Shown here piece by piece: positions 2,974 through 20,323 of a stretch of DNA of 21,497 nucleotides (its first letter is position 1; every line of letters begins with the position of its first letter). Origin of the DNA: an uncultured bacterium (lineage in GTDB: Bacteria > Lernaellota > Lernaellaia > JACKCT01). The notes beneath the pieces are model-generated. The model made no database searches. It was not told where the DNA came from and saw only the letters and a list, made by a program, of their open reading frames with translations. The stretch spans positions 1 through 21,497 of the forward strand of contig CAZQAE010000078.1 of the NCBI GenBank assembly GCA_964591275.1. Reading direction: 5' to 3'. A program made the position numbers and the translations under genes.

Positions 2974-3113
2974 GTCGACCTTCCTTTGGAAACGAACAAA
3001 AAAACAAGACGCTTAAAGGATTGACTTGACTGTTTTTGTTGCGTGAACATTCCCCTCGACTTCACTATAGACGAAAATTGTCAGAATGAAAGAAAAAGCT
3101 GCCACCATTATTA

Positions 3114-3142
3114 TCGACAAACAGTCTTGTTTTTGATATTAT
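3114..3142 (+). promoter_or_regulatory. Sigma70-like promoter candidate for poly-Asp gene 1 (TCGACA-N17-TATTAT)
   Basis: TCGACA (3114-3119), a 17-nt spacer, then TATTAT (3137-3142). It lies 23 nt upstream of the GGAGGG RBS (3156-3161) and the ATG at 3165. Confidence 0.3.
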
Positions 3143-3164
3143 TTATTGAGAATTGGAGGGTGTC

Positions 3165-3924: not shown

Positions 3925-5763
3925 TCAGGCTTTGTGAATTTTCCTGATTTCATCTCGGGCTTCGTCGCAATTGACGTTGAGTTCCAGCGATTTGATAAAA
4001 TACAATTCCGCGAAATCCACCTGGTTTTGAGCGGCGTTTATCTTGCCCAGAAACAAATAGGCCTGATATAGTTTCTGGTTAAAGTTCATTCCAGTCTTGA
4101 TGAGCTTTTCCGCCTCGCCGGCGCTTGATGCCCCCATAAGATTAAAGACGCACCAACCCTGGTAAACGTATGCTTCGGCGCATTCGGGATCTGCGGCGAT
4201 GGCTGCTTCCAATTGGGTTTTTGCTTCGGCAAAGTTCCCCTTGTCGATCAAGCGTTCGGCGGCTTGGACAAACGCCAAAGCGGAGTCCCCCGCTGCACCG
4301 ACGGCACCTGAAGGGATGTCCCCCGTTGAAGTCTCGGATTTCTCGTCCCCAAAATCCTCCATGCTCAAATCGGCTTTCGACTCGGATTCCTCGGGCGCAT
4401 CCTCCCCCCAAAGAGAATCCTCGGACACTTCCAGGCCGAGATCGTCGAGTTCCTGCAAGGCTTCTTCATCGGCGGTGCCGGATGTTTCGCTGTCCAGCTC
4501 AGCCTGCGCGCCATCGTCGGCGTCAAATTCTTCAAATTCAAATTCTGCTTCGTCCGGCACGGCCATTTCATCCCCGCTGCCCTTTTCGCTTTGCTTTTCA
4601 TCGGACAAAGATAAGGTTTGATCTTCCATCTCGAAAGCATCCGGTATGGACATCTGACCAAGAAGATCCGGCTTTTCCTTCGGAGATTCGGGCGCTGCTG
4701 GTTCGCTGGTGAGCGCTTCGGACGCTTGGGGCAGTGCGGACGCCGAAGCCTCCTCCTTTACGCTGGAAGCTATCGGCCTGACAAGAGGCTCAGACTCGGT
4801 CCTCATCGCCGCAGAGGGTTCCTCAATAGTTATTGACTCCCCTGATTTTTCAGATGCGACTCGTTTTTTCACCTCATCAACGCTCTTGAGCGCCTGGGCG
4901 ATAATGTCGTCTCCAATCGAAATTTCATAACCATCCTTCTTCACAGCAGCCTTCGCTTCGCGGTCCCGCTCCAGTTTTGTCTTTTGAGACACAGATTTTT
5001 CACCGCTTTTTTGAACACTTTCGGGAAAGCCGATGAAACCGAGTAGGAACATTCCATAAATGGTTTTATAGGCGACGCTCTTTTTCAGCTTGGTCAGAGC
5101 CACGATCTGGCGCAGAGTTCGGACGCCGTTAACGAGAGAATAAATTCTCGTGCCCGTCGGACCAAAGGCCAGGTCCTCTTCCCGATAAGGACAATCAGAT
5201 CTTTTGTGCAAAGGCGTCTCTTTGCGACCACGAAACTCTGCGGGAAGTTTTTGCAATGAGGCATAATCCCGAACACCAATATAAACCAGATTCGCGACAT
5301 CGATTTGCAATATTCTGTCTGCTTCCTCCACAATTTCACCGTCTTTAAAAAAGAAATCCCCTTCAGGCCACTCAAATACCTTGAAAAGCTTCAAGGTGAT
5401 ATGAGAATTGAGGGCCTCAAAAAGGGAGTGCGGCGTCAGATAACCTTTTTCCACAAGATAGGAACCTTGGCGACTGTCGCCCGCGCGCGTGTTTTTGAAC
5501 GAGATGTCGGCGATTTCCTGAGACACCTGCTTTTGCTGCACAAGGTATTCTCCCAGGCTATAGCCGGGGAAATGCGTGCTGGTCACGGCAGCAATTTTCC
5601 CTTGATTAAAATGAATGTGTATCTTTTTCGGACCCCTTGTCAAAGCGAGTATCCCCGTTTTCGATGACTGAAAAAGAATATTGAGGATTTTAGGAAAAGG
5701 AAGCTGCTGGAGCGAACCTTTAAGCGCATCGCGTTTAGGACGTTCAGTCATGGCTACCCACAT
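3925..5763 (-). CDS. DUF4388 (PatA-N-terminal-like) x2 protein with an acidic low-complexity central region and a C-terminal TPR
   Basis: LKGSLQQLPFPKILNILFQSSKTGILALTRGPKKIHIHFNQGKI matches the DUF4388 pattern (GdL..l.l.dlLq....ktG.L.......g.i.f..G.i). A second similar unit follows (TGTRIYSLVNG...). About 170 aa of D/E/S-rich sequence comes next. The C-terminus, KGNFAEAKTQLEAAIAADPECAEAYVYQGWCVF...YQAYLFLGKI, is TPR-like. The start is ambiguous (5763 or 5751) because neither has a Shine-Dalgarno sequence. Confidence 0.65.
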   Translation of the reverse strand: MWVAMTERPKRDALKGSLQQLPFPKILNILFQSSKTGILALTRGPKKIHIHFNQGKIAAVTSTHFPGYSLGEYLVQQKQVSQEIADISFKNTRAGDSRQGSYLVEKGYLTPHSLFEALNSHITLKLFKVFEWPEGDFFFKDGEIVEEADRILQIDVANLVYIGVRDYASLQKLPAEFRGRKETPLHKRSDCPYREEDLAFGPTGTRIYSLVNGVRTLRQIVALTKLKKSVAYKTIYGMFLLGFIGFPESVQKSGEKSVSQKTKLERDREAKAAVKKDGYEISIGDDIIAQALKSVDEVKKRVASEKSGESITIEEPSAAMRTESEPLVRPIASSVKEEASASALPQASEALTSEPAAPESPKEKPDLLGQMSIPDAFEMEDQTLSLSDEKQSEKGSGDEMAVPDEAEFEFEEFDADDGAQAELDSETSGTADEEALQELDDLGLEVSEDSLWGEDAPEESESKADLSMEDFGDEKSETSTGDIPSGAVGAAGDSALAFVQAAERLIDKGNFAEAKTQLEAAIAADPECAEAYVYQGWCVFNLMGASSAGEAEKLIKTGMNFNQKLYQAYLFLGKINAAQNQVDFAELYFIKSLELNVNCDEARDEIRKIHKA

Positions 5764-6101
5764 ATTTGAAAATGAGAATTATTTAAAACCCAAACCAAAT
5801 TTTATGTCGTGAAATAGGTCAATGTCAAGGGAGGATTAGGCCAAAATTGCCTGCCGGACAATTCCACGAAACGATCTCGTATTGTTAAATATTTGGCATA
5901 TTTCCCTCTTTTGTGAAATTTGCAATGCCTTAATCCGCACTTCGTTTTTGTAAGAGCAATTACGTAGTTTTATGACGTGGATCATGTTTTGTGACCATTC
6001 TAACATATATAAAGGGCGTGAGGATATCGGTTCGAGGTAAAAAATGGGAACCTCGAAAAAATGCGAAACATAAAAGGGAAGAAATTCAAAGGAGGCGCGC
6101 C

Positions 6102-6782
6102 ATGAAAATAGATGTTGATTTTTTTGATTCTGTTCAGCTTTTCAAAGGCCTTATTGGAAATGACGATCCGGAAATAGAATCGCTTATACAGCCTCTTTTC
6201 ATCAAGAAAAAGCAAGCTGCTTTCCGTCCCGGCGATCCATCGGATTCTATTTACGTCATCCGTTCAGGCCGCGTAAAAGTCGGAAAGACAACTGGGGATG
6301 GCCGTGAAATCATTCTCAATTTACTAAAAAAGGGAGATGTGTTCGGAGAAATGGCCTTCCTGGATGACGGGCCACGCGACACCTTCGCGGAAGGATTGGA
6401 GGACACGCAACTCTACGTCATCACCAGAGCGGGTCTTCTCAAGCTCATTAAGCGACGTCCCGCCATTACGTTTCGCTTGACGAAGATCATCGGCAAGCGT
6501 CGCAAGGAAGCGGAAAACAACATGGAAAGCCTACTCTACAAGGGCGTACGTGAACGCCTGGCTGGTTTACTGGTCCGCCTTTCCGAGGACTACGGCATAA
6601 ACGACAGCCGTGGGAGATTGCTTCGCATCAGGATCACGCATCAGGACCTGGCCAATCTCATTGGCTCAAGCCGTGAAACGGTCAGCCTGACCCTGGGCGA
6701 TTTTCGTCGGGAGGGGCATATCGACATCAATGACCGAAAAATCATCATCAGGAAAACGAACTCCCTGACCTCCGTGAATTAA
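6102..6782 (+). CDS. Crp/Fnr-family transcriptional regulator (cNMP-binding domain plus C-terminal HTH)
   Basis: The ORF-track ORF starts at 5991. AAAGGAGG (6089-6096) sits 5 nt before the ATG at 6102, so MKIDVDFFDSVQLFKGL is taken as the true N-terminus. The cNMP-binding motif is GDVFGEMAFLDDGPRDTFAEG. The HTH is ITHQDLANLIGSSRETVSLTLGDFRREG. Confidence 0.85.
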   Translation: MKIDVDFFDSVQLFKGLIGNDDPEIESLIQPLFIKKKQAAFRPGDPSDSIYVIRSGRVKVGKTTGDGREIILNLLKKGDVFGEMAFLDDGPRDTFAEGLEDTQLYVITRAGLLKLIKRRPAITFRLTKIIGKRRKEAENNMESLLYKGVRERLAGLLVRLSEDYGINDSRGRLLRIRITHQDLANLIGSSRETVSLTLGDFRREGHIDINDRKIIIRKTNSLTSVN

Positions 6783-8919: not shown

Positions 8920-10989
8920 ATGGCTGCGGCGACATCAATGTGGAATCCAAAGGAAAAATTATACGCTCCCCTGATGATATTTGGCATCGTGCTGATCCTT
9001 TGCCTGCCGATGTTTCTTAATCCAAAGGGAATCCGCTGCGCCGATGACTACCGCGCCGCCGATTGGCTCAATGACATCGGCCACCACCTCACGCTACGGG
9101 AGGGATTGCGCACCTACGGCGAGTTTCCGCTGCGCACGCATCTTTTCGGCGGCGGCTATCCCATTTTGGGTCACCCATCAGACGCCACGCTTTCACCGGC
9201 CTCCTGGTCCTTTCTCATTTTGCCCATCCATATCGCCCTGAAGTTGAACATCCTCATTCTTTTGTGGATCGGCGCTTTCGGCATTTATCTCCTGGCCAGA
9301 TTTCGACTTTCCTTGAAGCCGATATATGCCTTTTTCTCATCGGCCGCTTTTACCTTTTGCGGCTGGTGGCTTTCTTTCGCCCTCACCGGCTTTTACGTGC
9401 AGTCCTATTATCTCCTGACGCCGATGATCCTATATTTCCTCTTAAAACCAAGAGACTCTCTGCGCTCCGGGCTATACGCGGGATTGGGGCTGCTGCTGAT
9501 TTTCCTACAGGCCGGCAATGGTTTTTTAGCCGTTTTGCATTTTCTCATTCTCATAACCTTTTTTCTGGCCGCGCAGGACTCAGACAAAAACCATTCTAGC
9601 TCTCTGGCTCTTGCTTTTGCAGCGATAATCGCCGTATCCGCGGCTATCAGCTATCACGCTAAAATTACATGGATCGGATCCATCATGGTCTGCGTGGGGA
9701 TTGCCTCACTTCCCGTTTTCTGGCGCCCAGCACGCAAGCTGGCTATCGCATGGAAACCTTACCTCATTCGATTATCCATCGCGTGCGCGGTGGTTGTTTT
9801 CGTGGGATGCGCCAAGTGGATTCCCATGACTGACCTGCTCGACAAGGCCCAGTACGCGCACCATGACCTTTTCGCTCAAGGCGACGCATACCAGTTTGGT
9901 CCTGGGGAGCGGACCGACCGCCGCTTTTACTCTTCGCTTCCGGCCTTTCTGGGCCACATCAACAAACCCCTTTCCGCCAGGACGAACTACACTTACGGAT
10001 TTCCTGATGAGGAGGAATACGCGCCGCTCGGCGTGTCATACGGCGTCGCAATAGCCTTTGCCCTGGTCGTCGTTTTCCGATGGACCTCCTACTCGCCCTG
10101 GTTCGCCGCCTGGCTGTTTTATCTTCTCATATGCTTCGGCCCAACGCTGCCCACCGACCCGTACCGATCCCTGATATGGGGACTGCCGGGTTTTTCAAAG
10201 TTTTTTGATCCTTTCAAGTACTTCAATTTTTTCCTCGTTTTGCCCATGACCATCGCTTTCGGGTCCGCGGCGGCTATGGTCGTCAAGAAATTCGGCAAAG
10301 CGAGAATATGGCACGGAATTTTCGCGCTGCTCCTTTGCTGGCCCTTGCTGCAAAGCCTGCCTTTGATGTGGACGCTTTTCGAAAAACCGGACAGCGCACT
10401 AGCGCCGAGGGAATCCTTCCACCAAATTCACCACCTGGAAAAAGCGGAAGATTTGAGACTTGATTACCGGCAGATCCAAGAGAAAAATCTCGGTCTGCTG
10501 CGCAATGAGCGAGGACGCGCCGAAAGCGCCACGGGGTTTAATAATCTCAGGAGGGGCGTAGGCGTCATTGACTGGTATGCCGATCTGTTGCTTCCCGAAA
10601 ACGCCTTGCCAAAACTCTTTGTGCTGCCGGACGGGACGCAGCTTCCCAATCCGAGTTATCTCGGCGAGGCCTGGTGCCTTGACGACGCATGCCGCATCAA
10701 GGATTTTCAAATTACGATGAACACCGTGAAGATTACTTTTGCCGCCAGCAGTGAAACAACGCTCGTCGTCAATCAGAATTACGATCCCGATTTTGTCTCG
10801 GGCTTTGGCAAGCCGCTTGACTATAAGGGTCTATTGTCCATCCAGGTTCCCGGCGAGGGCGATTATGTCGCGGAGTTGAAATACAAACCAACAAAAGTTT
10901 TTGCGGGATTCGCCGTTTCGACAGCATCTCTCATTGTCTGTTTTTTGCTTCTGGCCTTTGCCCGCAAAAAAGAACGAAGCGAAAGCTAA
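8920..10989 (+). CDS. Polytopic integral membrane protein (689 aa), possibly a GT-C/YfhO-like glycosyltransferase
   Basis: At least 12 hydrophobic segments span the first roughly 470 aa. An early loop contains DDYRAADWLNDIGHH...FGGGYPILGHPSD, which faintly resembles the GT-C first-loop D-x-D/HP motifs. A soluble domain of about 180 aa follows, then a final TM helix and KKERSES, an arrangement reminiscent of YfhO. No RBS is evident at 8920 and the ATG at 8938 is an alternative start. The functional call is tentative. Confidence 0.45.
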   Translation: MAAATSMWNPKEKLYAPLMIFGIVLILCLPMFLNPKGIRCADDYRAADWLNDIGHHLTLREGLRTYGEFPLRTHLFGGGYPILGHPSDATLSPASWSFLILPIHIALKLNILILLWIGAFGIYLLARFRLSLKPIYAFFSSAAFTFCGWWLSFALTGFYVQSYYLLTPMILYFLLKPRDSLRSGLYAGLGLLLIFLQAGNGFLAVLHFLILITFFLAAQDSDKNHSSSLALAFAAIIAVSAAISYHAKITWIGSIMVCVGIASLPVFWRPARKLAIAWKPYLIRLSIACAVVVFVGCAKWIPMTDLLDKAQYAHHDLFAQGDAYQFGPGERTDRRFYSSLPAFLGHINKPLSARTNYTYGFPDEEEYAPLGVSYGVAIAFALVVVFRWTSYSPWFAAWLFYLLICFGPTLPTDPYRSLIWGLPGFSKFFDPFKYFNFFLVLPMTIAFGSAAAMVVKKFGKARIWHGIFALLLCWPLLQSLPLMWTLFEKPDSALAPRESFHQIHHLEKAEDLRLDYRQIQEKNLGLLRNERGRAESATGFNNLRRGVGVIDWYADLLLPENALPKLFVLPDGTQLPNPSYLGEAWCLDDACRIKDFQITMNTVKITFAASSETTLVVNQNYDPDFVSGFGKPLDYKGLLSIQVPGEGDYVAELKYKPTKVFAGFAVSTASLIVCFLLLAFARKKERSES

Positions 10990-10999
10990 TGGGAGTTCA

Positions 11000-12115
11000 T
11001 CACAAATTCTCTAGTAGAGCGACACACACCTTTTCGATATCGTCTTCACTGAGAAATTCATGACAGGGCAAACCTATTGCGCATTTATCCCAGCGGCGCG
11101 AGTTGGGAACCTGCTCGTCAGATACGGCACATTGTTTCTTATAATAATCCAGCGAGCTGATCGAACGGGCGGGAACGTTGCACTCTATGCCAGCCTGCCT
11201 CATGGCCGCGATAATCTTTGCTCGCTTCGCGCCCCCCGTCAGAGCTATGAAAAAAGTCTGATGATTCCATATAGTATCTGGCGATGCTTGTGGAAGGAAA
11301 TAAGCGTCGTGGGGACGCAGGCGCTCTCTATACTTAGCGCCGACCCTGACGCGAGCCGCAATGATGCTTTCAATCCGTTCCATTTGCTCAAGACCCACGG
11401 CGCTGGAAATCTCCGGCAGTCGATAGTTCATTCCGGGAAATAACAGGCGTTTGTCGGATACCGAAAAACCGTGCTCGCCATAAGCCCGAACGAATTCCGC
11501 CAGCTTTTCATCATTGGTGAGCACGGCGCCGCCCTCCCCCGTTGTCACGATCTTCCGGGGATGAAAACTCAAGATCGCGGCCAGGCCGGAGCATCCCAGC
11601 GGCTCGCCGTCCGTCATCGTCCCCAGGGCGCAGGCGGAATCCTCCGCCAGAACGGCGTTAATTTCTTTTGCCCATCGCTGAAGGGAGGCAAAATCACAGG
11701 GCAACCCAAATTGATGCACCGCTATGACGAAATCCGGCTTTTTGGTCGCGGCCCAATCCAGTGAATTTTGTGGAATGGAAAAATTATCGTTGTTCACATC
11801 GAGAAAAATCGGCATGGCCCCGAGCACTTCGACCGCACCGGCGGTTGCCGCGAATCCGTAATCGGGTAACGCAACCTTATGTCCCGGTCCGACGCCCAGT
11901 CCCCGCAACATGGCCAAAAGGGCCGATGTTCCCGAGTTTGTCGTCACCGCATAAGAAACCTGGAAATATTCACACAGCGCCCTTTCAAATTTTTCGCGAT
12001 AAACGCCTTGCGTGAGTCGTCCGCTTTGGAGGATGTCGCGAATCGCCGGAAGGCTCGCAACGCTTGAAGAGGGTGACGCCAAACGGATTTTGGGTTCAGG
12101 TTCGGCCATGTTCAC
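11000..12115 (-). CDS. DegT/DnrJ/EryC1/StrS-family PLP-dependent sugar aminotransferase (ArnB-like)
   Basis: Family-typical segments are YAVTTNSGTSALLAMLRGLGVGPGHKVALPDYGFAATAGAVEVLGAMPIFLDV and SFHPRKIVTTGEGGAVLTND, the latter carrying the Lys motif. The start overlaps the upstream epimerase stop by 20 nt. Confidence 0.85.
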   Translation of the reverse strand: MNMAEPEPKIRLASPSSSVASLPAIRDILQSGRLTQGVYREKFERALCEYFQVSYAVTTNSGTSALLAMLRGLGVGPGHKVALPDYGFAATAGAVEVLGAMPIFLDVNNDNFSIPQNSLDWAATKKPDFVIAVHQFGLPCDFASLQRWAKEINAVLAEDSACALGTMTDGEPLGCSGLAAILSFHPRKIVTTGEGGAVLTNDEKLAEFVRAYGEHGFSVSDKRLLFPGMNYRLPEISSAVGLEQMERIESIIAARVRVGAKYRERLRPHDAYFLPQASPDTIWNHQTFFIALTGGAKRAKIIAAMRQAGIECNVPARSISSLDYYKKQCAVSDEQVPNSRRWDKCAIGLPCHEFLSEDDIEKVCVALLENL

Positions 12116-13052
12116 GATACCAGTCCGCCGTTATTTTCAAGCCCGCTTCAAGGTCGATCTTCGCCGAAAAACCCAGAAGCTTTTTGGCTTTGGCGATGTC
12201 GGGTGTCCGCAATAAAATATCCGTGCCGAAATGAGCTTTATGCGTGATCCGGGATTCGCTGTCGGTCGCGACGACGATCAACTCCGCCAGCCGCCGCGCG
12301 GTCACCGCGCCGGTCGCATCGCCAATGTTGATAATCTCATCTCCGACGCCTTCTTGCCTGATCGCAGCCATTGTCGCCGCAATAAAATCATCGACAAAAC
12401 ACCAAGCGCGAACCTGCTCCCCGTCGCCGTAAACCACAATGTCCTCGCCCGCTAGCGCCGCGAGCGTCATATCGCGCACTGCTCCATTTCCCGACTGCCC
12501 CGGTCCGTAGATGTTAAAGGGCCGAAGGCAAACCACCTCCAAGCCCTTTTGCGCGCCCGCCGTCAAGCACAGTTTTTCTCCGGCAATTTTCGACACTGCG
12601 TATGTCCATCGAGGCTCTTTCATATCATCGACGGTCAGCGGCTGATCCTCGTGAGCATTGCCGGCATTTGTCCCGTAAACTTCGCTGGACGAAATGAAAA
12701 TAAGCCGCCGCGTCTTTTCCGTCAGCAACTCGAGGAGATTCATGGCTCCACCGATGTTGACGCGCAACACATCGTATGGCGCTTTATAATAATTCAGCAC
12801 ACCGGCAATCGCCGCCATATGCACGACAATATCGGCGTCGCGCGCAAGCTCCGTCAGCGGCGACCGGCCCAGCACATCGCCCTGGACCAATTCGATCCCG
12901 CTTTGCTTTGCGCGGTTCAGATCGCCGATCGGTTTCCGACGCAGATTGTCCAGCAGGCACACGTCATAGTCCGCGGCAGCCGCCAGCGCGAGGTTCAGGC
13001 CCAAAAAGCCTGCACCGCCCGTAATCAGTATTCTCGATTTTTTCATGGCCAT
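12096..13052 (-). CDS. NAD-dependent epimerase/dehydratase (extended SDR; UDP-sugar 4,6-dehydratase or UDP-glucuronate decarboxylase-like)
   Basis: N-terminal Rossmann motif ILITGGAGFLGLNL and catalytic YAVSKIAGE (Y-x3-K). At 318 aa it is the size of the UXS/ArnA C-terminal domain. Confidence 0.85.
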   Translation of the reverse strand: MAMKKSRILITGGAGFLGLNLALAAAADYDVCLLDNLRRKPIGDLNRAKQSGIELVQGDVLGRSPLTELARDADIVVHMAAIAGVLNYYKAPYDVLRVNIGGAMNLLELLTEKTRRLIFISSSEVYGTNAGNAHEDQPLTVDDMKEPRWTYAVSKIAGEKLCLTAGAQKGLEVVCLRPFNIYGPGQSGNGAVRDMTLAALAGEDIVVYGDGEQVRAWCFVDDFIAATMAAIRQEGVGDEIINIGDATGAVTARRLAELIVVATDSESRITHKAHFGTDILLRTPDIAKAKKLLGFSAKIDLEAGLKITADWYREHGRT

Positions 13053-13147: not shown

Positions 13148-14566
13148 GTGCTATCTTTCGCGGCGATGAAAAGCACCTCGTCAAACAACGGCCGCCGTTT
13201 CCTCCTCGTTCATCCGGGCGGGCCGCGCCGCGATCTCTTCGACCGCCTGGGACGATCCGACTCGCCGCCCCTGGGCATTCTCTACCTGGCTTCATCTTTG
13301 GAAGCTGCGGGGCATGAGGTCCGCGTTGTCGACTTGAATTTTCCGCGCCATGTAGACAGCATCAAACCTCTTTTGCAAAAATGGAGGCCGCACATCGTCG
13401 GCCTCGGCACACTCGCGCCGTCGTTTCAAGACGTCATGGGCCACGCGCGATCCATACGCAAGCAGTTGCCGAACGACGTTCTCCTCATCGCCGGCGGCCC
13501 AGACGCCACCGCGCGAACCGAATTGTACACGCAGGCGGATATCTTTGACGCCGTGCTTTTCGGCGAAGCGGAAAAGAGCATTGTGCGCCTTGCCGACAGC
13601 TATCCCACTATCCCCCAAGGCGAGGGGATTATTCCCTGCGGCCAAAGCGCCGGGGCCATCCCTGAGCCTTTGGATTCCGATTCCCTGCCTTTCCCCGCCC
13701 GCCATCTGTTGCCCTTGAAAAGATACCGGGGCGGTCCTGCCTACAAGCGGCGTCGATACTCTACAAGCATTTTCACGCACCGTGGCTGCGCCTACAATTG
13801 CTCTTTTTGCGAAAAAAGCGTTCACCACGGAGCGATGCGCTTTCGCTCAGCCGCCAGCATCCATGAAGAAATCCGCCGCATCCGAAGGGATCACGGAATC
13901 CACGACATTCGTTTCGTGGACGACGTGCTGATGATCAGCAAACGCATCCTCGGCGAACTGATCGATCTGATTCGTTATGACGCCGACCCCTTCGACTGGA
14001 TGTGCTGCGGCCGCATCGACCTGATGGATGAAAAAATGCTGGCCGAAATGAAAAAGGCCGGGTGTTACCGTATCGAGATTGGCATCGAAAGCGGCTCGGC
14101 CCGCGTACTGGATTTGGTAAAAAAGGGAACGGCCCCCGGACAGGCCCTGGAGGCCATGCGCAAGGCGCGTGTCGCCGGTATTGAAGTCATCGCCAATTTT
14201 ATCATCGGCTTTCCAACCGAAACCGGAGAGGAAATGGCGCAAACGGTGGACCTGTCGCTCAAAACCGATCCCGACTACGCCGTGTATTTCCTCTTCACTC
14301 CTTTTTCCGACGCACCCATCTCGAAGGATTTCAACCTGGGTTGGGATGACTTCGCGCCGGGATACCGCGCCCCTTCTCCCGATTACCTTGTGCCCTCCGA
14401 CCAAGCGCAGGACATGGTGGACAGCGCCCTGCGTCGTTTTTATTTCCGCCCAGGCTATATCCTCAGGCGCCTTGTCGCCATCCGCAATCCCTGGATTATC
14501 GCCGATCTGGCAGCATGCGCCGGATTATTTTTGTACCGACGGATTAAAAATATCATTTGTTCATGA
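13148..14566 (+). CDS. B12-binding-domain radical SAM enzyme (class B; probable methyltransferase-type)
   Basis: An N-terminal cobalamin-binding Rossmann-like region (FLLVHPG...LGILYLASSLEAAGHEVRVVDLNF...VLLIAGGPDA) precedes a radical SAM core with RGCAYNCSFCE (C-x3-C-x2-C). The start is either the GTG at 13148 (as in the ORF track) or the ATG at 13166. Neither has a clear Shine-Dalgarno sequence. Antisense ORFs 13292-13828 and 13847-14404 are rejected. Confidence 0.8.
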   Translation: MLSFAAMKSTSSNNGRRFLLVHPGGPRRDLFDRLGRSDSPPLGILYLASSLEAAGHEVRVVDLNFPRHVDSIKPLLQKWRPHIVGLGTLAPSFQDVMGHARSIRKQLPNDVLLIAGGPDATARTELYTQADIFDAVLFGEAEKSIVRLADSYPTIPQGEGIIPCGQSAGAIPEPLDSDSLPFPARHLLPLKRYRGGPAYKRRRYSTSIFTHRGCAYNCSFCEKSVHHGAMRFRSAASIHEEIRRIRRDHGIHDIRFVDDVLMISKRILGELIDLIRYDADPFDWMCCGRIDLMDEKMLAEMKKAGCYRIEIGIESGSARVLDLVKKGTAPGQALEAMRKARVAGIEVIANFIIGFPTETGEEMAQTVDLSLKTDPDYAVYFLFTPFSDAPISKDFNLGWDDFAPGYRAPSPDYLVPSDQAQDMVDSALRRFYFRPGYILRRLVAIRNPWIIADLAACAGLFLYRRIKNIICS

Positions 14567-14668
14567 AATTCCAACAGGGCGTCCTGGCCAGAATCTTCGA
14601 TGCTACAAAACAATCCAGTCGCATAAAGAATGAAATCAAAATCGCTTTTTCTTTTTGAGGGTTGTTAG

Positions 14669-15562
14669 GTGCCGTTTCCAGGTGAACTCGCCGCGCTGGG
14701 AACAGCGTGCTGCTGGGTGATCACGGCCATGTCCTTCGAGAGCGCGGGCAAGCGGATCGGATCGCTCGCCGTCAACCTGATACGATTAGTGCTGGCTTTC
14801 TTCTTCCTGGCCACACTCGGAGCACTCACCAGGGGCTTGCCGGCACCGACCGACGCTAGTGCGCATAACTGGTGTTGGCTGTCGATTTCGGGCCTGGTGG
14901 GTTTCACGCTCGGCGATCTCGCACTGTTTAGGGCCTTCGTGCTGATCGGCTCGCGCCGGGCGATCCTGATGATGTCCTTCGTGCCGCCGATGTCGGCGCT
15001 GCTGGGCTGGATTATCCTGGGCGAAGGGCTGAGCGCCGCCGACCTGACCGGTATGGCGCTGACGATCGCAGGCGTGGCGCTGGCGGTGCTGGAACGAAGC
15101 GACAACGCCGATGGCGCTCAAATCAAACCGATGGCGACCGGCATTTTTCTAGCTTTAGCCGGCGCACTGGGGCAGGCCGTAGGGCTAGTGCTGTCCAAGT
15201 ATGGGATGCAGGATTTCAACCCCTTCGCATCGACGCAGATACGGGTCATCGCGGGGGCCGTCGGTTTCGCGGTGATCTTTTCGTTTATCGGCTGGTGGCC
15301 CAAAGTCATTTCGGCGCTGAGGGACACGCCTGCAATGAAACGAGTCGCGCTGGGCGCGTTTTTCGGCCCCTTCCTGGGTGTCTCCCTCTCGCTGCTGGCT
15401 TTGCAGCATATCAAAACCGGGGTCGCCGCTACGCTCATGGCCACCACGCCCGTGCTGATCCTGGCGCCGGCGGCCATCGTGTTCAAAGACAGAGTCACTC
15501 CCAGGGCAATCCTGGGTACGCTGCTGGCGGTTATCGGGGTTTCCGTTCTGGTCTTGTCGTGA
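14669..15562 (+). CDS. EamA/DMT-superfamily transporter (10 predicted TM segments)
   Basis: GTG start with GAGGG 7 nt upstream. Two EamA-like halves are visible (TACCWVITAMSFESAGKRIG...; PMSALLGWIILGEGLSAADLTGMALTIAGVALAV; ...GVAATLMATTPVLILAPAAIVFKDRVTPRAILGTLLAVIGVSVLV). It is noticeably more GC-rich than its neighbours. Confidence 0.8.
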   Translation: MPFPGELAALGTACCWVITAMSFESAGKRIGSLAVNLIRLVLAFFFLATLGALTRGLPAPTDASAHNWCWLSISGLVGFTLGDLALFRAFVLIGSRRAILMMSFVPPMSALLGWIILGEGLSAADLTGMALTIAGVALAVLERSDNADGAQIKPMATGIFLALAGALGQAVGLVLSKYGMQDFNPFASTQIRVIAGAVGFAVIFSFIGWWPKVISALRDTPAMKRVALGAFFGPFLGVSLSLLALQHIKTGVAATLMATTPVLILAPAAIVFKDRVTPRAILGTLLAVIGVSVLVLS

Positions 15563-15593
15563 CCGCGAAAGTGTTAAGCCTGGCTTCTTTTTT

Positions 15594-16496
15594 TCATTCG
15601 TAATAGCGCGGCTCGACCTTCCTGCGCCCTGCGGTGCGTTGATATTTTTCTTTGGATTTCCCAATAACAATCACCGCGTAAATCTTTTCTCCTTTTTCGA
15701 GACCAAGGTTTTTTCTAATTCCCTTGTCGTTCTTGATCGCTTCAACAGCAAACCCGATCAGACAGGTTCCCAGACCAGCCGCGTGGGCGGCCAGTAAAAT
15801 ATTTTGCGTCGCCAGCAACGCATCTTCGCAAGGAGTAGCGCTTCCTGTTTTAGCTCCTACTAAAATAGCCGCCGGGGCTTGATGAAACAGCATATCTTTT
15901 CCATCAACATCATAGTCATGCAACGCCTGCTCAACAAATTCATAATAGTCGCGATAATATTTGCCAAGCACGTCCTTCGCAAACAACCGCGATAGGAATC
16001 GAACCGACCTTTTCGATGCAAGGTTGTTGAGTTTGCGGAAGAAACCCGAAATTTTAGATCCCAGTTTTTCCACCGCCTGCGCAGTCGGCAAAATGGTAAA
16101 AGTCCATTGTTGCGTGTTGGAACCGGAGGGGGCAGTCATTCCCGCTTTCACCAGATCCTTGAGTAAATCACGCTCGACCGATTCGTCGGAAAATTTTCTG
16201 CATGAACGCCGCGAACTCATGAGATTTACGAGCGACGCGGCGTCAAACTTACCCGGTTTTAACCAAGTTTTGTCCACATTGAGGGTTTCAAATTTCAAGC
16301 CATCCGCATCAATAAAGGAAATGTCTATAGCCTTTTGGGGACATGACGCCGCGCAATGCCCGCAACCGATGCATAGCGTGGAATCGCCGACCGCTAATTC
16401 ATCGGCCATCGACATAATCTCCCTGGGGCAGACCGGAATACACAATCCACATCCGTTGCACAGGTCCCGGTCGATCTTTATTTTTATTGGTTCCAA
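15594..16496 (-). CDS. 2x[4Fe-4S] ferredoxin-domain / nitroreductase-family fusion protein
   Basis: The N-terminus carries CNGCGLCIPVCP and CIGCGHCAASCP (two CxxCxxCxxxCP clusters). The C-terminal roughly 200 aa is nitroreductase-like (RRSCRKFSDESVERDLLKDLVKAGMTAPSGSNTQQWTF...). The start is an apparent TTG at 16496, because the first Fe-S motif begins at residue 13 and no in-frame ATG lies upstream. Confidence 0.8.
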   Translation of the reverse strand: MEPIKIKIDRDLCNGCGLCIPVCPREIMSMADELAVGDSTLCIGCGHCAASCPQKAIDISFIDADGLKFETLNVDKTWLKPGKFDAASLVNLMSSRRSCRKFSDESVERDLLKDLVKAGMTAPSGSNTQQWTFTILPTAQAVEKLGSKISGFFRKLNNLASKRSVRFLSRLFAKDVLGKYYRDYYEFVEQALHDYDVDGKDMLFHQAPAAILVGAKTGSATPCEDALLATQNILLAAHAAGLGTCLIGFAVEAIKNDKGIRKNLGLEKGEKIYAVIVIGKSKEKYQRTAGRRKVEPRYYE

Positions 16497-16743
16497 AGTC
16501 TTTCCATCCTCATTTTCAAAGTAATTTCAAAAAATCATGGGTTTCTAGCGTGAAACACTACCATAAAAATGAATGCTGCAAAAAAATGGGGGAAACGAGA
16601 TGTTTTTTCAAAACTCGCCAGTTCCATCCCAAAACTGCGATGGGACTCCTTTGGTTCCCCGACCCAGAGTGAGCAATTTTTTGTGAGGTCAAGGGAATAA
16701 GCGCTGCTCTTTCGGCATTGGGATAGCTGCCTATGGACTGTCG

Positions 16744-17802
16744 CTACAGCTTGATATTTGGATGTTTGTCGTAAGGCATCGGTAATACATCCGCGCCATG
16801 CAATGGATCGGCGTATGTCTTAATAAATTCCTTGTCCTCCGACGCATGGCACATGCCCTTCCCTTTTTGCAGGGCGTCCCAATTCGACATGCGGTGGTGG
16901 ATGGACTCAATCGAATCCGTTTTCACATTTCCAAAAGATATCTGGATGAAGGGACACGGCGTCACATCCCCGTAGCAGGTTACGTAAATTTCCGTTGTCC
17001 CGCAGGGGCAGCGAAAATCCTCGCTTCCCAGGTTTCCGTGGAGAAACACATCCGAATCCTCGGCCAACTCATCGAGAATCTTTCGATGCCGCGCCTCCAG
17101 TAACACTTCACGGTTGGCGCTCCATCCACCGGCGGAAGACGGGAAAACCAATCCCAACGTCGCATCGTGCTCCTTGGCCAATTTCAAAACCCTGCCCACG
17201 TTCCCCGCCTCCACCTGGCTGACCGTGGTTGTGAAGCACAAATGTCCACGAACGCCGGGAGTTTCGCGAATGACTTTAAGCGCAGCGAAAACTTTTTCGT
17301 AGAGTCCGGGGATGCCACGCAGTTCGTCATGCTCTTTTGGGACCGGCGAATCGAGGCTGATCTTGAAAAGGTCCGCGCCGGCCTTGCGTAGCGACATGAT
17401 GCGCTCGGAATCGAGCAAGGCCCCGTTCGTATTGATGCCGATAAATGTTTGACGCGGGTGAAAAAAGCTAATGATCTTCTCAAGATTCTTATCGATGAGC
17501 GGCTCGCCGCCGGTGAAATTGACTTCATAAACGCCCATGCGATAGCAGTCATCGCCCAGGCGGCGCAGTTCAACGCTATCCAAACGGCTTCGTGAATTGT
17601 CGATCATTTTCAGCGATGAACATTTCGCACAAGCCGCCTGACAGTCGTACAAAACAGCGTATTCGAGAGCGCTCACCATCGGGTGGCCCCGCACTTTCGA
17701 CAGCGCCAGATTGCGCAGCCCGTTCACGGCAAACAGGGGCTTTTTGACAAGGAACATTCCGAATTTTGGAATGCGCCTGAGTATGTCGATAGGTCGTTTC
17801 AT
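16744..17802 (-). CDS. Radical SAM enzyme with a C-terminal Cys-rich SPASM/twitch-like extension
   Basis: ATG at 17802 with GAGAGAGG about 8 nt upstream. The motifs are YDCQAACAKCS (C-x3-C-x2-C), FTGGEPL, and a C-terminal cluster CPCGTTEIYVTCYGDVTPCP...C. This is typical of rSAM peptide or cofactor maturases, but no substrate gene was identified. Confidence 0.8.
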   Translation of the reverse strand: MKRPIDILRRIPKFGMFLVKKPLFAVNGLRNLALSKVRGHPMVSALEYAVLYDCQAACAKCSSLKMIDNSRSRLDSVELRRLGDDCYRMGVYEVNFTGGEPLIDKNLEKIISFFHPRQTFIGINTNGALLDSERIMSLRKAGADLFKISLDSPVPKEHDELRGIPGLYEKVFAALKVIRETPGVRGHLCFTTTVSQVEAGNVGRVLKLAKEHDATLGLVFPSSAGGWSANREVLLEARHRKILDELAEDSDVFLHGNLGSEDFRCPCGTTEIYVTCYGDVTPCPFIQISFGNVKTDSIESIHHRMSNWDALQKGKGMCHASEDKEFIKTYADPLHGADVLPMPYDKHPNIKL

Positions 17803-17990
17803 GCTTGCCTCTCTCGTGCGACGATAACATTGCCGCGAGACATGAACAAGCTATCAGGCAATAGAGGGTGAGTGAACACCCTGTGAAACGATTTCGCAGA
17901 GTTAAAGGATGTTGCAAAAGGATCACAGCCGAGGACGGCTGTGCCGATGTTTCACGCGTTCCTTCATTCCCGCTGCCATGGCCCACCTTC

Positions 17991-18010
17991 GCCATTCCGG
18001 CCGGAATGGC
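17991..18010. promoter_or_regulatory. Perfect 20-bp palindrome GCCATTCCGG|CCGGAATGGC in a divergent promoter region (candidate operator)
   Basis: Read directly: 17991-18000 gccattccgg and 18001-18010 ccggaatggc. The sequence is its own reverse complement. It lies 61 nt upstream of the ATG at 18071 and 189 nt upstream of the minus-strand rSAM start. Confidence 0.5.
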
Positions 18011-18070
18011 GTCCTCCCCAGAGCATTATGACTTGCTCTACATGAGCGCTTGGACCTAATATCCTAGACG

Positions 18071-20323
18071 ATGGATTTCATTTCTGTAAAAATTCCGGCG
18101 CGGTCATTAAACCACTTGTCGCTTCTTAGAAACGCTCGAACCTATTTTTGCTGCTTTATGGCGCTTTTCTGCCTTGGCTTATATCTGGCGGCGACTTCTC
18201 CGCTAATTTATTGGCGCGATTCCGTCGAGTTCGCCATGATCGGCCACAACCTGGACATCGGGCATCCGGCCGGCAGTCCGGTCTTTTCCATGTTCACCAA
18301 ATTCCTTGATTTACTGCCCATCGGCTCCATCGCTTTTCGGGCAACATTATTTTCCATGCTCAGTGCGTTTTTCGCCATATCAGCCCTGGTTTTTACACTT
18401 TTCAGACTGGCTGAATCCTTTAGACATACTGGTTGGAGATTGTGTTTCGGCGCTCTTGTCGCTGTCTGCGCTTTCGCCTTTTCTCCAGCTTTTTTCGATT
18501 GGGCCATTGCGCCCGAAGTGTACGCCGCGCAAGTTCTGGTCGTTTTCCTCCTTATTGCAATGTCGATTGAGTTATTCATCCAGGAGCGTCACGGCGGAGC
18601 CGACAGGCGACTTCTCTTTCTCGCCGGTTTGATTCTGGGATTGGGATGCGGCGTGCACATGGGGACGGGGCTGCTCGCGCCGGGGCTAGCCTGGGTTCTC
18701 ATCATGCCGAATCGATCCCTGCGGCGATTACGAAGCATTTCCCTTTTCGGCCTTTTTGTTTTCATCGGCTTTAGCGTTTACATCTATCTGCCGATCCGGG
18801 CCGCAACGCAGCCGACATTCAACCAGGGCAATCCGCAAACGTGGGGTTTGTTCCTGGGGCACATCACCGGCAGTCGCTATTCGGAAATCATCCACAGCTT
18901 CCCGTGGCCGCGCATCCTGCTCAATCTCCGCGCCCTGGCCGCGCATTTCCCCGACCAGCTCACATGGCCCACGCTGCCTCTGGCTGTCTTCGGCTTAATG
19001 TTTTGCGCCAGGCGAAGTCCGCATTTTCTCATCGGTATCTGTCTATTCGTTTTTGGACATCTCTACCTGTACGTGAAGGATTGGGAAAGAGCCTTCGGCT
19101 ATATCCCGCTATTCGCCCTGGCCGCTGTGCTGACGGGCGTCGGCGCTGTCGCCGCCTCTCATTTCCTTTCGGGCAAAAAGCGATATTTCAGCCCCTGGAT
19201 AGGAATTTCCGCGTGCCTGATCTTTGCATTCATGCTTTTTGTTCACCAGGCTCAGAGAGCTATCCTTGAACGTTCCCACAGCGCGCACGACCTGACACAT
19301 CGCCACGCACGCGGCCTCCTCAATTCATTGCCACACGATGCGCTTTACGTCAGTCATCAGGACGCCAACAGTTATACGATCTTCTACGCGCAATCCGTCG
19401 AACGATATCGGGAGGATGTGGTCCACATCCAACGTGCTTTTCTCCCGCTGCCGGATTATCTGCGTGAACGTTATTCATCCATCGACTGGAGCGGTTACGA
19501 TCCGCAAAAAAGGTTCGGCGTTTACGACTTCTTGGTCGACCAAAGCAAAGTGCAAGAAGCATTCTGGGACTATGGGTGGGAAATGCGCGCCGATGTTCCA
19601 GTCGATGGCCTGGCAACGCACGGTTTCATCTGGCGGATCGCCCAAGACAATTCTTTCAAACCTGATCCGGATCGACGGAGATTAAAGAAATATTTCGGGC
19701 AGGTCATCGCGGAGATGGATTTTCATCCTTACGACTTCACCGTCCGCGAAGTCTATGCCAGGCGCTTTTCGCTATTGGCCAAATATATGTATGACCATCG
19801 CGAGTATGAGCAGGCGGAAAGCGCCATCAACCGGGCGCTTGAAATCCGCCCCCAATACGGCCAGTTATACGCGCAGCTCGGCATCATTGAGGCTGCCAGG
19901 GGAATGCTCGATCAGGCATGGCTAAACGGCGTCCTGGCCACGCAACTCGAACCCGGCCATATCGACAATTGGAACTACCGCGCGCAGTTTGCGATTCGGG
20001 ATAAGAAACCAGACGACGCCCTGTTTGCTTACGAAAAATCACTGGCGCTCAACCGCTGGCAAAGCGGCCCCGCGTTGGGTCTCGCGGAATTTTTGGTGAA
20101 TAAAAAACAATATGCCAAGGCCGCATCGCGAGCCAAAGACGCCCTCGACTGCGCGAAAAACGAACGCGACGAGCATCGAGCCAATAACGTTTTTGCGCGG
20201 GCGCTTGTCGGCCTGGGCCAATGCGCTGACGCCCTCCCGATTATCACAAAACTTAAGGAAATGAATCCTGGCGACGAGACGACGCAAGGGATGCTTGATT
20301 TTTGCCGGGGACAATTGAAATAG
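18071..20323 (+). CDS. DUF2723 (TMEM260-like) GT-C-fold membrane glycosyltransferase with a C-terminal TPR domain
   Basis: The first-loop motif YWRDSVEFAMIGHNLDIGHPAGSPVF matches the DUF2723 signature as I recall it (D-[SG]-x-E-F......G-[IV]-x-H-P-x-G-x-P). About 11 TM segments span residues 1-390. The C-terminal roughly 200 aa is TPR-like (YEQAESAINRALEIRPQYGQLYAQLGIIEA...). The stop at 20321-20323 overlaps or abuts the GT2 gene. Confidence 0.75.
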   Translation: MDFISVKIPARSLNHLSLLRNARTYFCCFMALFCLGLYLAATSPLIYWRDSVEFAMIGHNLDIGHPAGSPVFSMFTKFLDLLPIGSIAFRATLFSMLSAFFAISALVFTLFRLAESFRHTGWRLCFGALVAVCAFAFSPAFFDWAIAPEVYAAQVLVVFLLIAMSIELFIQERHGGADRRLLFLAGLILGLGCGVHMGTGLLAPGLAWVLIMPNRSLRRLRSISLFGLFVFIGFSVYIYLPIRAATQPTFNQGNPQTWGLFLGHITGSRYSEIIHSFPWPRILLNLRALAAHFPDQLTWPTLPLAVFGLMFCARRSPHFLIGICLFVFGHLYLYVKDWERAFGYIPLFALAAVLTGVGAVAASHFLSGKKRYFSPWIGISACLIFAFMLFVHQAQRAILERSHSAHDLTHRHARGLLNSLPHDALYVSHQDANSYTIFYAQSVERYREDVVHIQRAFLPLPDYLRERYSSIDWSGYDPQKRFGVYDFLVDQSKVQEAFWDYGWEMRADVPVDGLATHGFIWRIAQDNSFKPDPDRRRLKKYFGQVIAEMDFHPYDFTVREVYARRFSLLAKYMYDHREYEQAESAINRALEIRPQYGQLYAQLGIIEAARGMLDQAWLNGVLATQLEPGHIDNWNYRAQFAIRDKKPDDALFAYEKSLALNRWQSGPALGLAEFLVNKKQYAKAASRAKDALDCAKNERDEHRANNVFARALVGLGQCADALPIITKLKEMNPGDETTQGMLDFCRGQLK

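Follow-up and report, generated by a model that had tools for sequence, protein, structure and literature searches.

Between two divergent sugar-modification operons of an uncultured Lernaellota bacterium lies a 268-bp gap (positions 17,803 to 18,070 of contig CAZQAE010000078.1, assembly GCA_964591275.1; the whole 21,497-nt stretch that was analysed is called the window), and this gap is a divergent promoter region holding two unrelated things, a perfect palindrome and a G+C-rich hairpin. The hairpin very probably belongs to a dispersed family of 25-nt elements, and whether it is a repetitive extragenic palindromic (REP) element of the kind that RAYTs (tyrosine transposases associated with REPs) mobilise is an evenly balanced question; the palindrome has what we regard as an even chance of being an operator-like dyad for a dimeric DNA-binding protein. 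Both are fairly ordinary kinds of feature. A first-pass annotation of the window had described the 20-mer GCCATTCCGGCCGGAATGGC (17991-18010), the stem and tetraloop CACAGCCG-AGGA-CGGCTGTG (17924-17943) and a third, weaker hairpin, and all three are present exactly as it described them.

The gap runs from the start of a minus-strand radical SAM/SPASM (rSAM) gene at 17802 (Pfam PF04055 and PF13186, with a GAGAGG ribosome-binding site before the start) to the ATG of a plus-strand GT-C transferase gene at 18071 (PF11028, TMEM260-like, plus TPR repeats), and the window DNA (ENA ERZ27317826, contig k141_479683) has the identical sequence in three independent assemblies. The rSAM protein has one close relative, 94% identical, in a sister lineage (JGI 3300082323, contig Ga0675941_001063, loci L004 and L152); the next relatives are at most 61% identical and include Candidatus Lernaella stagnicola and metagenome-assembled genomes labelled FEN-1099 or Deltaproteobacteria, a picture of relationships matched by that from the glycogen-synthase-like gene. 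The rSAM and GT-C genes are adjacent in the window and L004 lineages only; given that rSAM has other neighbours in more distant relatives, the junction is lineage-specific and L004 is the sole orthologous comparator. The DNA upstream of rSAM in 22 relatives (loci of the rSAM profile) has neither similarity to the gap nor an analogous palindrome. Neutral divergence between window and L004 corresponds to 81-83% identity at four-fold sites (about 82%); the gap is 88.8% identical, other intergenic regions 67-90%, and those away from promoters 67-75%.

The GC hairpin as a member of a dispersed family

As a structure the hairpin is not unusual, since the window has five perfect 8-bp stems with loops of 3-8 nt, this one among them, against an expectation of 2.7 +/- 1.8. 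Scanned with the stem pattern, the viral collection IMG/VR yielded 42 matches, spread over 30 viral contigs, and a scrambled control hairpin 29 matches in 28 contigs; because the control gave a similar number, the raw match count is not evidence. The real matches share features that lie outside the search pattern: TGT precedes 33 of the 42 (P about 1e-51), the loop is CCCT or CCCC in 30, the flanks are unrelated, and eight contigs carry two to four copies, whereas the control matches have no common head, loop or multiple copies. The consensus over 25 nt is TGTGG-CACAGCCG-CCCY-CGGCTGTG, and a strict count gives 34 members in 31 distinct flank contexts, spread over 23 viral contigs of 49-68% G+C. 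The carriers found have genes for terminase, portal, capsid and tail and are genuine tailed phages or prophages, and the nearest named relatives of one carrier terminase are from Terriglobales and Candidatus Angelobacter. Copies in L099, L103 and L114 are clearly intergenic, crude calls of open reading frames (ORFs) being unreliable in G+C-rich contigs, and inverted doublets with outward heads and spacers of 13-88 nt are found in L107, L114 (two), L103 and L105.

With up to four mismatches allowed, the hairpin was absent from 167 kb of relatives and from 415 kb of unrelated metagenome loci; no further copies were found in L152, L153 or the prophage-bearing contigs L160-L163 of the same genomes, and neither the hairpin nor the L004 insertion described below was found in cultured phages, plasmids or the full-text literature. 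Rfam returned only sub-threshold microRNA-hairpin noise for the family. One carrier, L107 (IMG/VR 3300013138_001791), has many long hairpins with sub-threshold matches to microRNA-precursor models (at about 2277-2413, 5306-5394, 11055-11117, 11598-11748, 12261-12368 and 14311-14442) and apparently contains an unusual number of long inverted repeats; among these sites only 11055-11117 is a doublet of the 25-nt family.

Comparison with the sister lineage shows what the window copy has lost. L004 carries an inverted pair of hairpins, with 25-nt arms that are 88% complementary and lie 82 nt apart. Its copy 2 matches the consensus at 25/25 positions and has a GTGG head; its copy 1, on the other strand, reads TGTAG-CACAGTCG-CCCC-CGGCTGTG, matches at 23/25 and has a GTAG head. 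The spacer between them has no match in the sequences compared. On its left flank the window copy is identical to the outer flank of L004 copy 1, and in loop and right arm it is identical to copy 2, a mosaic that is the pattern expected of a deletion between the two GGCACAGCCG repeats in an L004-like pair. The ancestor would probably have had the inverted pair, as L004 still has, and the window lineage probably lost 112 bp between the repeated stems. The annotation had suggested that the hairpin could be a 5' untranslated-region element or a protein-binding stem, a proposal that is not borne out: being a copy of a dispersed family, and one sitting at an indel polymorphism relative to L004, it is not a locus-specific regulatory structure. 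In the window it is a headless solo copy, probably a passenger without a dedicated regulatory role.

REPs are defined by a 5' GT[A/G]G tetranucleotide followed directly by a palindrome (PMC3686654), and deletions between palindromes as well as decayed single copies are properties of their inverted doublets, the REPINs (PMC3337134). The family consensus and both L004 copies conform to this head rule, the window copy reads TCGG in its place, and inverted doublets are present. Several observations weigh against a RAYT-mobilised REP. No RAYT or IS200-type transposase (PF01797) was found in 148 ORFs within 1.6 kb of copies, nor any PF01797 match among the window genes; within about 47 kb of window and sister genomes the hairpin occurs at this locus only; the heads of the L004 pair face inward, unlike those of the doublets in viral contigs; and the family was scanned for in the viral collection only, so that its phage association is partly an ascertainment effect.

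The main alternative, which we hold somewhat unlikely, is that the family is a regulatory RNA or DNA hairpin of a group of tailed phages, serving for instance intercistronic processing, termination or protein binding and recognised by a conserved factor, and that the window copy is a remnant of phage-derived DNA. All members outside this locus are in contigs with phage structural and packaging genes (terminase, portal, capsid, tail); three copies in L099, on the coding strand, sit where co-directional structural genes leave short gaps between them, and in L114 and L103 a stop codon precedes the start of the element by 0-1 nt. The conservation of loop and head is what a specific binding partner would lead one to expect, and the lack of a RAYT near the copies fits as well. 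The phage association, however, suffers from the choice of collection; phage genes are missing from the window and L004 contexts; and head, adjacent 8-bp palindrome and inverted doublets together are the defining features of REPs and REPINs. RAYTs are single-copy genes not expected beside each REP.

A conserved palindrome with operator-like properties

The palindrome is one base pair longer on each side than first described (Table 1). In dinucleotide shuffles of the window, spacer-less palindromes with arms of at least 11 bp arose in 3/300 and those with arms of at least 10 bp in 9/300; it is thus unusual at about the 1% level per window and statistically the sole unusual structure of the three. 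No second match to the 20-mer with three or fewer mismatches exists within the window. A degenerate second copy lies close by (Table 1), the chance of one this good within +/-100 nt being about 0.006, and it could be an auxiliary half-site or the trace of a local duplication. Measured from the GT-C start codon, the palindrome itself is 60-81 bp upstream; from the rSAM start, the upstream distance is about 190-210 bp.

Two of its 22 positions differ in L004, one in the outermost pair (C to T) and one at a central base (CCGGCCGG to CCGACCGG). The 18 core positions are all unchanged where neutral identity is 82% (P=0.028, one comparator lineage), whereas the identity of the whole palindrome, 20/22, is not significant alone (P=0.22). 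The best-conserved block of the gap is 60 columns long and extends from the palindrome in the direction of the rSAM gene (Table 1). With 18/18 and 57/60 positions kept, again against one comparator lineage, the site has the conservation expected of purifying selection, and it has the symmetry and the conserved half-sites of an operator.

A dyad of the same sequence recurs in a family-level relative, L155 (787-kb contig ctg94671l, ENA ERZ21869602), whose GlgA-like protein is 64% identical to that of the window and in which synteny is kept for the Band_7, Crp, PatA_N, 214-aa, GlgA and LysM genes. The L155 dyad, CATTCCCGCCGGAATG at 9881-9896, shares 15/16 positions with the inner 16 bp of the palindrome in the window and is an exact CATTCC-N4-GGAATG. 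It lies in the divergent gap that separates the GlgA-like gene from a cohesin-like gene of 214 aa; a perfect TATAAT follows after 3 nt, and the dyad is at about -67 from a minus-strand promoter-like site (by consensus matching). Its flanks are unrelated to those in the window and its centre is different. The half-sites CATTCC and GGAATG are therefore identical in window, L004 and L155, and the centres are GGCC, GACC and CGCC respectively. By chance an exact CATTCC-N4-GGAATG is expected 0.0013 times in L155 and 0.016 times in all 265 kb of relatives searched. Since the dyad core was defined after the match was seen, we regard this recurrence as suggestive, not proven. Of the L155 dyad, the homologous window region (2974-3152) retains the left half alone (tttctttCATTCtgac...TATAGT), a GGAATG standing about 29 nt beyond.

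The same stem sequence at a non-homologous locus argues for recognition of sequence and not merely of a fold, and conserved half-sites around a free centre, at a promoter that is not homologous, are the pattern of a protein-binding dyad, not of a purely structural RNA hairpin. The idea of a protein-binding dyad that the first-pass annotation had put forward thus gains support from the conserved half-sites, the variable centre and outer edge, and the recurrence in a divergent promoter region of L155. With the half-sites arranged as CATTCC-N4-GGAATG, a dimeric protein would bind by recognising CATTCC and would, most plausibly, modulate transcription of the GT-C/GT2 operon, and possibly that of the rSAM operon.

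The palindrome is not a repeat shared across taxa, as is seen from its zero matches in IMG/VR and from the 67 matches in a JGI metagenome scan (of a set without the window contig and the L004 contig), which have no shared flanks, centres or context and many of which are terminators with A-runs and T-runs. Among these JGI loci (L027-L093), about 40 unrelated loci, from a variety of organisms, have the arms GCCATTCCG/CGGAATGGC as the core of a hairpin, many of them with extended stems and terminator-typical T-runs, and one locus is repeated in 11 samples.

A number of points weigh against an operator. The core of the L155 match was, as said, defined post hoc, and the dyad is known from three genomes only, at one site per about 21 kb sampled, with no further instance in the window, L152 or L153 and none in four more distant relatives (L156-L159). 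No regulator gene adjoins the palindrome, its neighbours being enzymes and transporters, and there is none beside the L155 dyad, where the neighbouring gene is cohesin-like; that 214/218-aa gene was considered as the regulator and rejected on this ground. The promoter positions rest on consensus matching, and both substitutions in L004 fit an RNA hairpin equally well, one as a loop change and the other, the outermost C to T, as a G-U pair that forms in minus-strand RNA only.

Alternatively, the palindrome would have no function at all and be either a young structure, accidental or born of duplication, or a low-copy lineage-specific repeat at a rearrangement junction, its conservation reflecting a short divergence time. 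We consider this rather unlikely. It would accord with the restriction of the rSAM/GT-C adjacency to two lineages, with the absence of anything similar upstream of rSAM in the 22 relatives, with the other indels and the mobile-type hairpin in the gap, with the lack of significance of the 20/22 identity taken alone, and with the about one window in a hundred that would hold such a palindrome by chance. The conservation of the 18 core positions and of the 60-nt block (P=0.003) nevertheless exceeds that of four-fold sites, the gap as a whole is more conserved than intergenic regions away from promoters, and the exact dyad in L155 is unlikely to be fortuitous given the expectations above (0.0013-0.016).

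A possible regulator

If the palindrome is an operator, its regulator would be neither encoded beside it nor the Crp/Fnr protein encoded nearby (5991-6782). The first-pass annotation had already argued that the usual motif of this protein does not fit and that another regulator is implied, and we agree. The Crp/Fnr protein has the CRP-like recognition helix SRETVS, and RETV-type helices recognise TGTGA-N6-TCACA-like half-sites; the palindrome reads CATTC-N6-GAATG and is no CRP-type site. The promoter of the Crp/Fnr gene, moreover, keeps a TGT[G/A]A-N6-TAACA site in window and L155 and has no CATTCC dyad. Helix and promoter together make Crp/Fnr an unlikely binder and imply a different regulator. 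We know of no operator consensus that the half-site CATTCC matches.

The Crp/Fnr promoter region (window 5764-6105, L155 5167-5508) has its CRP-like site, TGTGACCATTCTAACA in the window and TGTAATCGCGCTAACA in L155, inside a well-conserved block ending in ACATATATAAAGG, which suggests that the gene may be autoregulated through TGTGA-type sites. In the gap, an imperfect dyad TGTGAAA-CGA-TTTCGCA at 17883-17899 belongs to a stretch, GTGAAACGATTTCGCAGAGT (17883-17902), that is identical to L004 at 20/20 positions; it is a second candidate protein site, unrelated to the palindrome and about 80-100 nt upstream of the rSAM start. The minus-strand motifs GTGAAAC (17951-17945) and GTTTCAC (17889-17883) bracket the GC hairpin. 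By eye, a sigma-54 promoter (TGGCAC-N5-TTGC) and a parS site were also tried and rejected for misfitting spacing and half-sites.

Candidate promoters and a possible role as RNA

Candidate promoters of both genes were picked by eye (Table 1), and with these the palindrome is upstream DNA for both. Use of the TAATAT would leave the GT-C mRNA with almost no leader and place the centre of the palindrome near -70. A promoter scan gives, in addition, a minus-strand promoter-like site, TTTACA-18-TAGGAT at 18090-18061, whose TAGGAT/ATATCC bases are shared with the conserved block at 18050-18070.

It is quite improbable that the palindrome acts as RNA, within a leader of about 250 nt transcribed toward rSAM from a promoter near 18060-18090, where it would be a hairpin of 9-11 bp that stabilises the mRNA or part of an attenuator with the downstream GC hairpin and a short T-run. 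The minus-strand promoter-like site is there, the GC hairpin followed by ATCCTTTTGC was called terminator-like on the minus strand, and the minus-strand leader folds better than its shuffles (z = -3.2 in the window and -3.9 in L004), to which the compatible substitutions noted above may be added; but L004 has not retained that promoter's -35, and the scan detects no promoter there, 112 nt are inserted in L004 between the palindrome and the supposed terminator, the helices predicted around the palindrome are broken and not compensated there, Rfam searches were negative, at gathering scores over the whole window and at E<=10 over 17700-18250, the terminator-like hairpin is itself one of the copies of the dispersed family and does not qualify as a terminator or attenuator, and a purely structural role does not explain a dyad of only 6+6 bp beside a TATAAT at the non-homologous L155 locus.

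Other features of the gap

Table 1. Features of the gap between the rSAM and GT-C genes (positions in the window).
Feature	Position	Strand	Size or sequence	Remarks
Weak hairpin	17866-17881	none	GGGTG-agtgaa-CACCC (GGGTG-N6-CACCC)	5-bp stem
Hairpin element of REP type, single copy	17924-17948	minus	25 nt, ATCGG-CACAGCCG-TCCT-CGGCTGTG	head not intact
Indel junction	17945-17946	none		L004 has 112 additional bases: inverted second hairpin copy and 82-nt A+T-rich spacer
Best-conserved block of the gap	17951-18009	none		57/60 aligned columns as in L004, including one 1-nt indel; P about 0.003
Degenerate second palindrome copy	17963-17982	none	TTCATTCCCGCTGCCATGGC	14/20 identical, 28 bp away, same in L004
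Perfect palindrome	17990-18011	none	11+11 bp, CGCCATTCCGG followed by CCGGAATGGCG	one pair longer on each side than first described
Conserved core dyad	17993-18008		16 bp, CATTCC-GGCC-GGAATG	inner part of the palindrome
Candidate rSAM promoter	17821-17849	minus	TTGTTC-N17-TATCGT	by eye; hexamers identical in L004, spacer diverged
Conserved block	18050-18070	plus	CCTAATATCCTAGACG	directly upstream of the GT-C ATG; 18/20 identical to L004
Candidate GT-C promoter	-10-like TAATAT at 18057-18062	plus	TTGCTC-N18-TAATAT	by eye; weak -35-like hexamer; TAATAT ends 8 nt before the ATG

Stems of 5 bp are commonplace, and the third hairpin, which has one pair broken in L004 (GGATG/CACCC), is a chance structure. 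Positions 17884-17891 show 8 nt of complementarity to the start codon of rSAM, a match that was rejected, as it has the chance frequency for a region of this size.

Small genes in the gap were considered and ruled out, the ORFs being undone in L004 by loss of the start, a frame-shifting indel or the 112-nt insertion. A 20-aa minus-strand ORF (18026-17964) loses both ATG and frame, and the plus-strand ORFs are broken by indels. With every gap ORF of at least 20 aa disrupted in L004, no precursor of a ribosomally synthesised and post-translationally modified peptide was found upstream of the rSAM/SPASM gene. There is also a minus-strand ORF of 18 codons (MAAGMKERVKHRHSRPRL, 17979-17923) with an AAGG ribosome-binding-like site, which ends inside the GC hairpin. 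Its first 15 codons show just two differences from L004, both synonymous, and its frame in L004 (4710-5003) is 97 codons long, its end overlapping the rSAM start in an ATGA; we judge it to be a chance ORF, the alternative being a putative leader peptide.

The neighbouring genes

Gene callers differ on the start of the GT-C gene, giving 721 or 750 aa, with Met30 as the alternative start in some; the Met30 codon is Ile in L004, where the upstream ATG and the reading frame are retained. The first 29 codons (18071-18157) have about 50-70% nucleotide identity to L004, a much faster divergence than that of the remainder.

The rSAM/SPASM gene (window 13148-17802; relatives L005-L012, L156 and L157) is always accompanied by genes for a B12-binding radical SAM enzyme, an NAD-epimerase and DegT aminotransferases, and its immediate upstream neighbour varies, being GT-C here and the B12-binding radical SAM enzyme or a carbamoyltransferase elsewhere. 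The cluster looks like a pathway for amino-sugar modification rather than for peptide maturation. Relative to window 16497-16743, the sister lineage (L004 6060-6831, L152 11162-11698) has an insertion of 525 nt which the window lacks, with a 178-aa gene of no assigned function between the rSAM and the nitroreductase/ferredoxin genes. A second difference between window and L004, of 1.2 kb, follows the GT2 gene. No tRNA genes were found.

Implications

If the dyad is a real operator, it would open a first way to study how a glycan-modification cluster (radical SAM/SPASM enzyme, B12 radical SAM enzyme, aminotransferase and TMEM260-like GT-C transferase) is regulated in a phylum known from metagenomes only. 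The hairpin family is of interest for REPINs in combining the REP architecture with phage genomes and more than one lineage. The boldest reading has two separate parts: the hairpin would be a REP/REPIN-type mobile element that crosses lineages, with near-identical copies both in intergenic gaps of tailed phages (one contig having Acidobacteriota-like relatives) and in a Lernaellota-like chromosome; and a regulator not yet described, acting on envelope-glycan genes of this uncultured group, would have CATTCC-N4-GGAATG as its operator. As a whole we think this unlikely; if true, REP-type hairpins would spread horizontally, perhaps carried by phages, rather than strictly as vertical companions of a resident RAYT. 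Chiefly, the hairpin serves as a caution, since the nature of a neat G+C hairpin in a promoter region as one copy of a dispersed element became apparent only beyond the locus.

Comparison with known systems

Operators of dimeric helix-turn-helix regulators (for example of the Crp/Fnr, TetR, GntR or MerR type) have the same two-fold symmetry, half-sites of 5-6 bp around a free central spacer, and an overall geometry of 16-22 bp, here 5-N6-5 (CATTC-N6-GAATG) or 5-N4-5; a location between divergent operons, a weaker second site nearby and recurrence of the dyad at another promoter are likewise shared. The palindrome differs from them in having no cognate regulator gene beside it and, at 11+11 bp, in being longer and more perfect than most natural operators.

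With intrinsic terminators and attenuators the GC hairpin has in common a G+C-rich 8-bp stem and a short T-run, on the minus strand only. It differs in that no gene lies upstream there, the weak T-run (ATCCTTTTGC) is even weaker in L004 (ATCCTTTCGC), matches to the terminator consensus occur at near chance frequency (3 found, 1.1 expected), and the stem is that of a dispersed element.

The RAYT-mobilised REPs and REPINs (PMC3686654, PMC3337134, PMC3116915) have the same GT[A/G]G head, an adjacent perfect palindrome of 8 bp and a short loop, and they show the same dispersal with unrelated flanks, inverted doublets with variable spacers, decayed single copies and deletions between palindromes. 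Here, in contrast, no RAYT was found, the density is low (one locus in about 47 kb) and the L004 heads face inward. The Stenotrophomonas REP TGTAGAGCCGAGCCCATGCTCGGCT (PMC3686654) closely resembles the hairpin family. REPIN populations are described as lineage-specific and vertically inherited, whereas this family is found in tailed-phage contigs of 49-68% G+C and in a bacterium of a different lineage.

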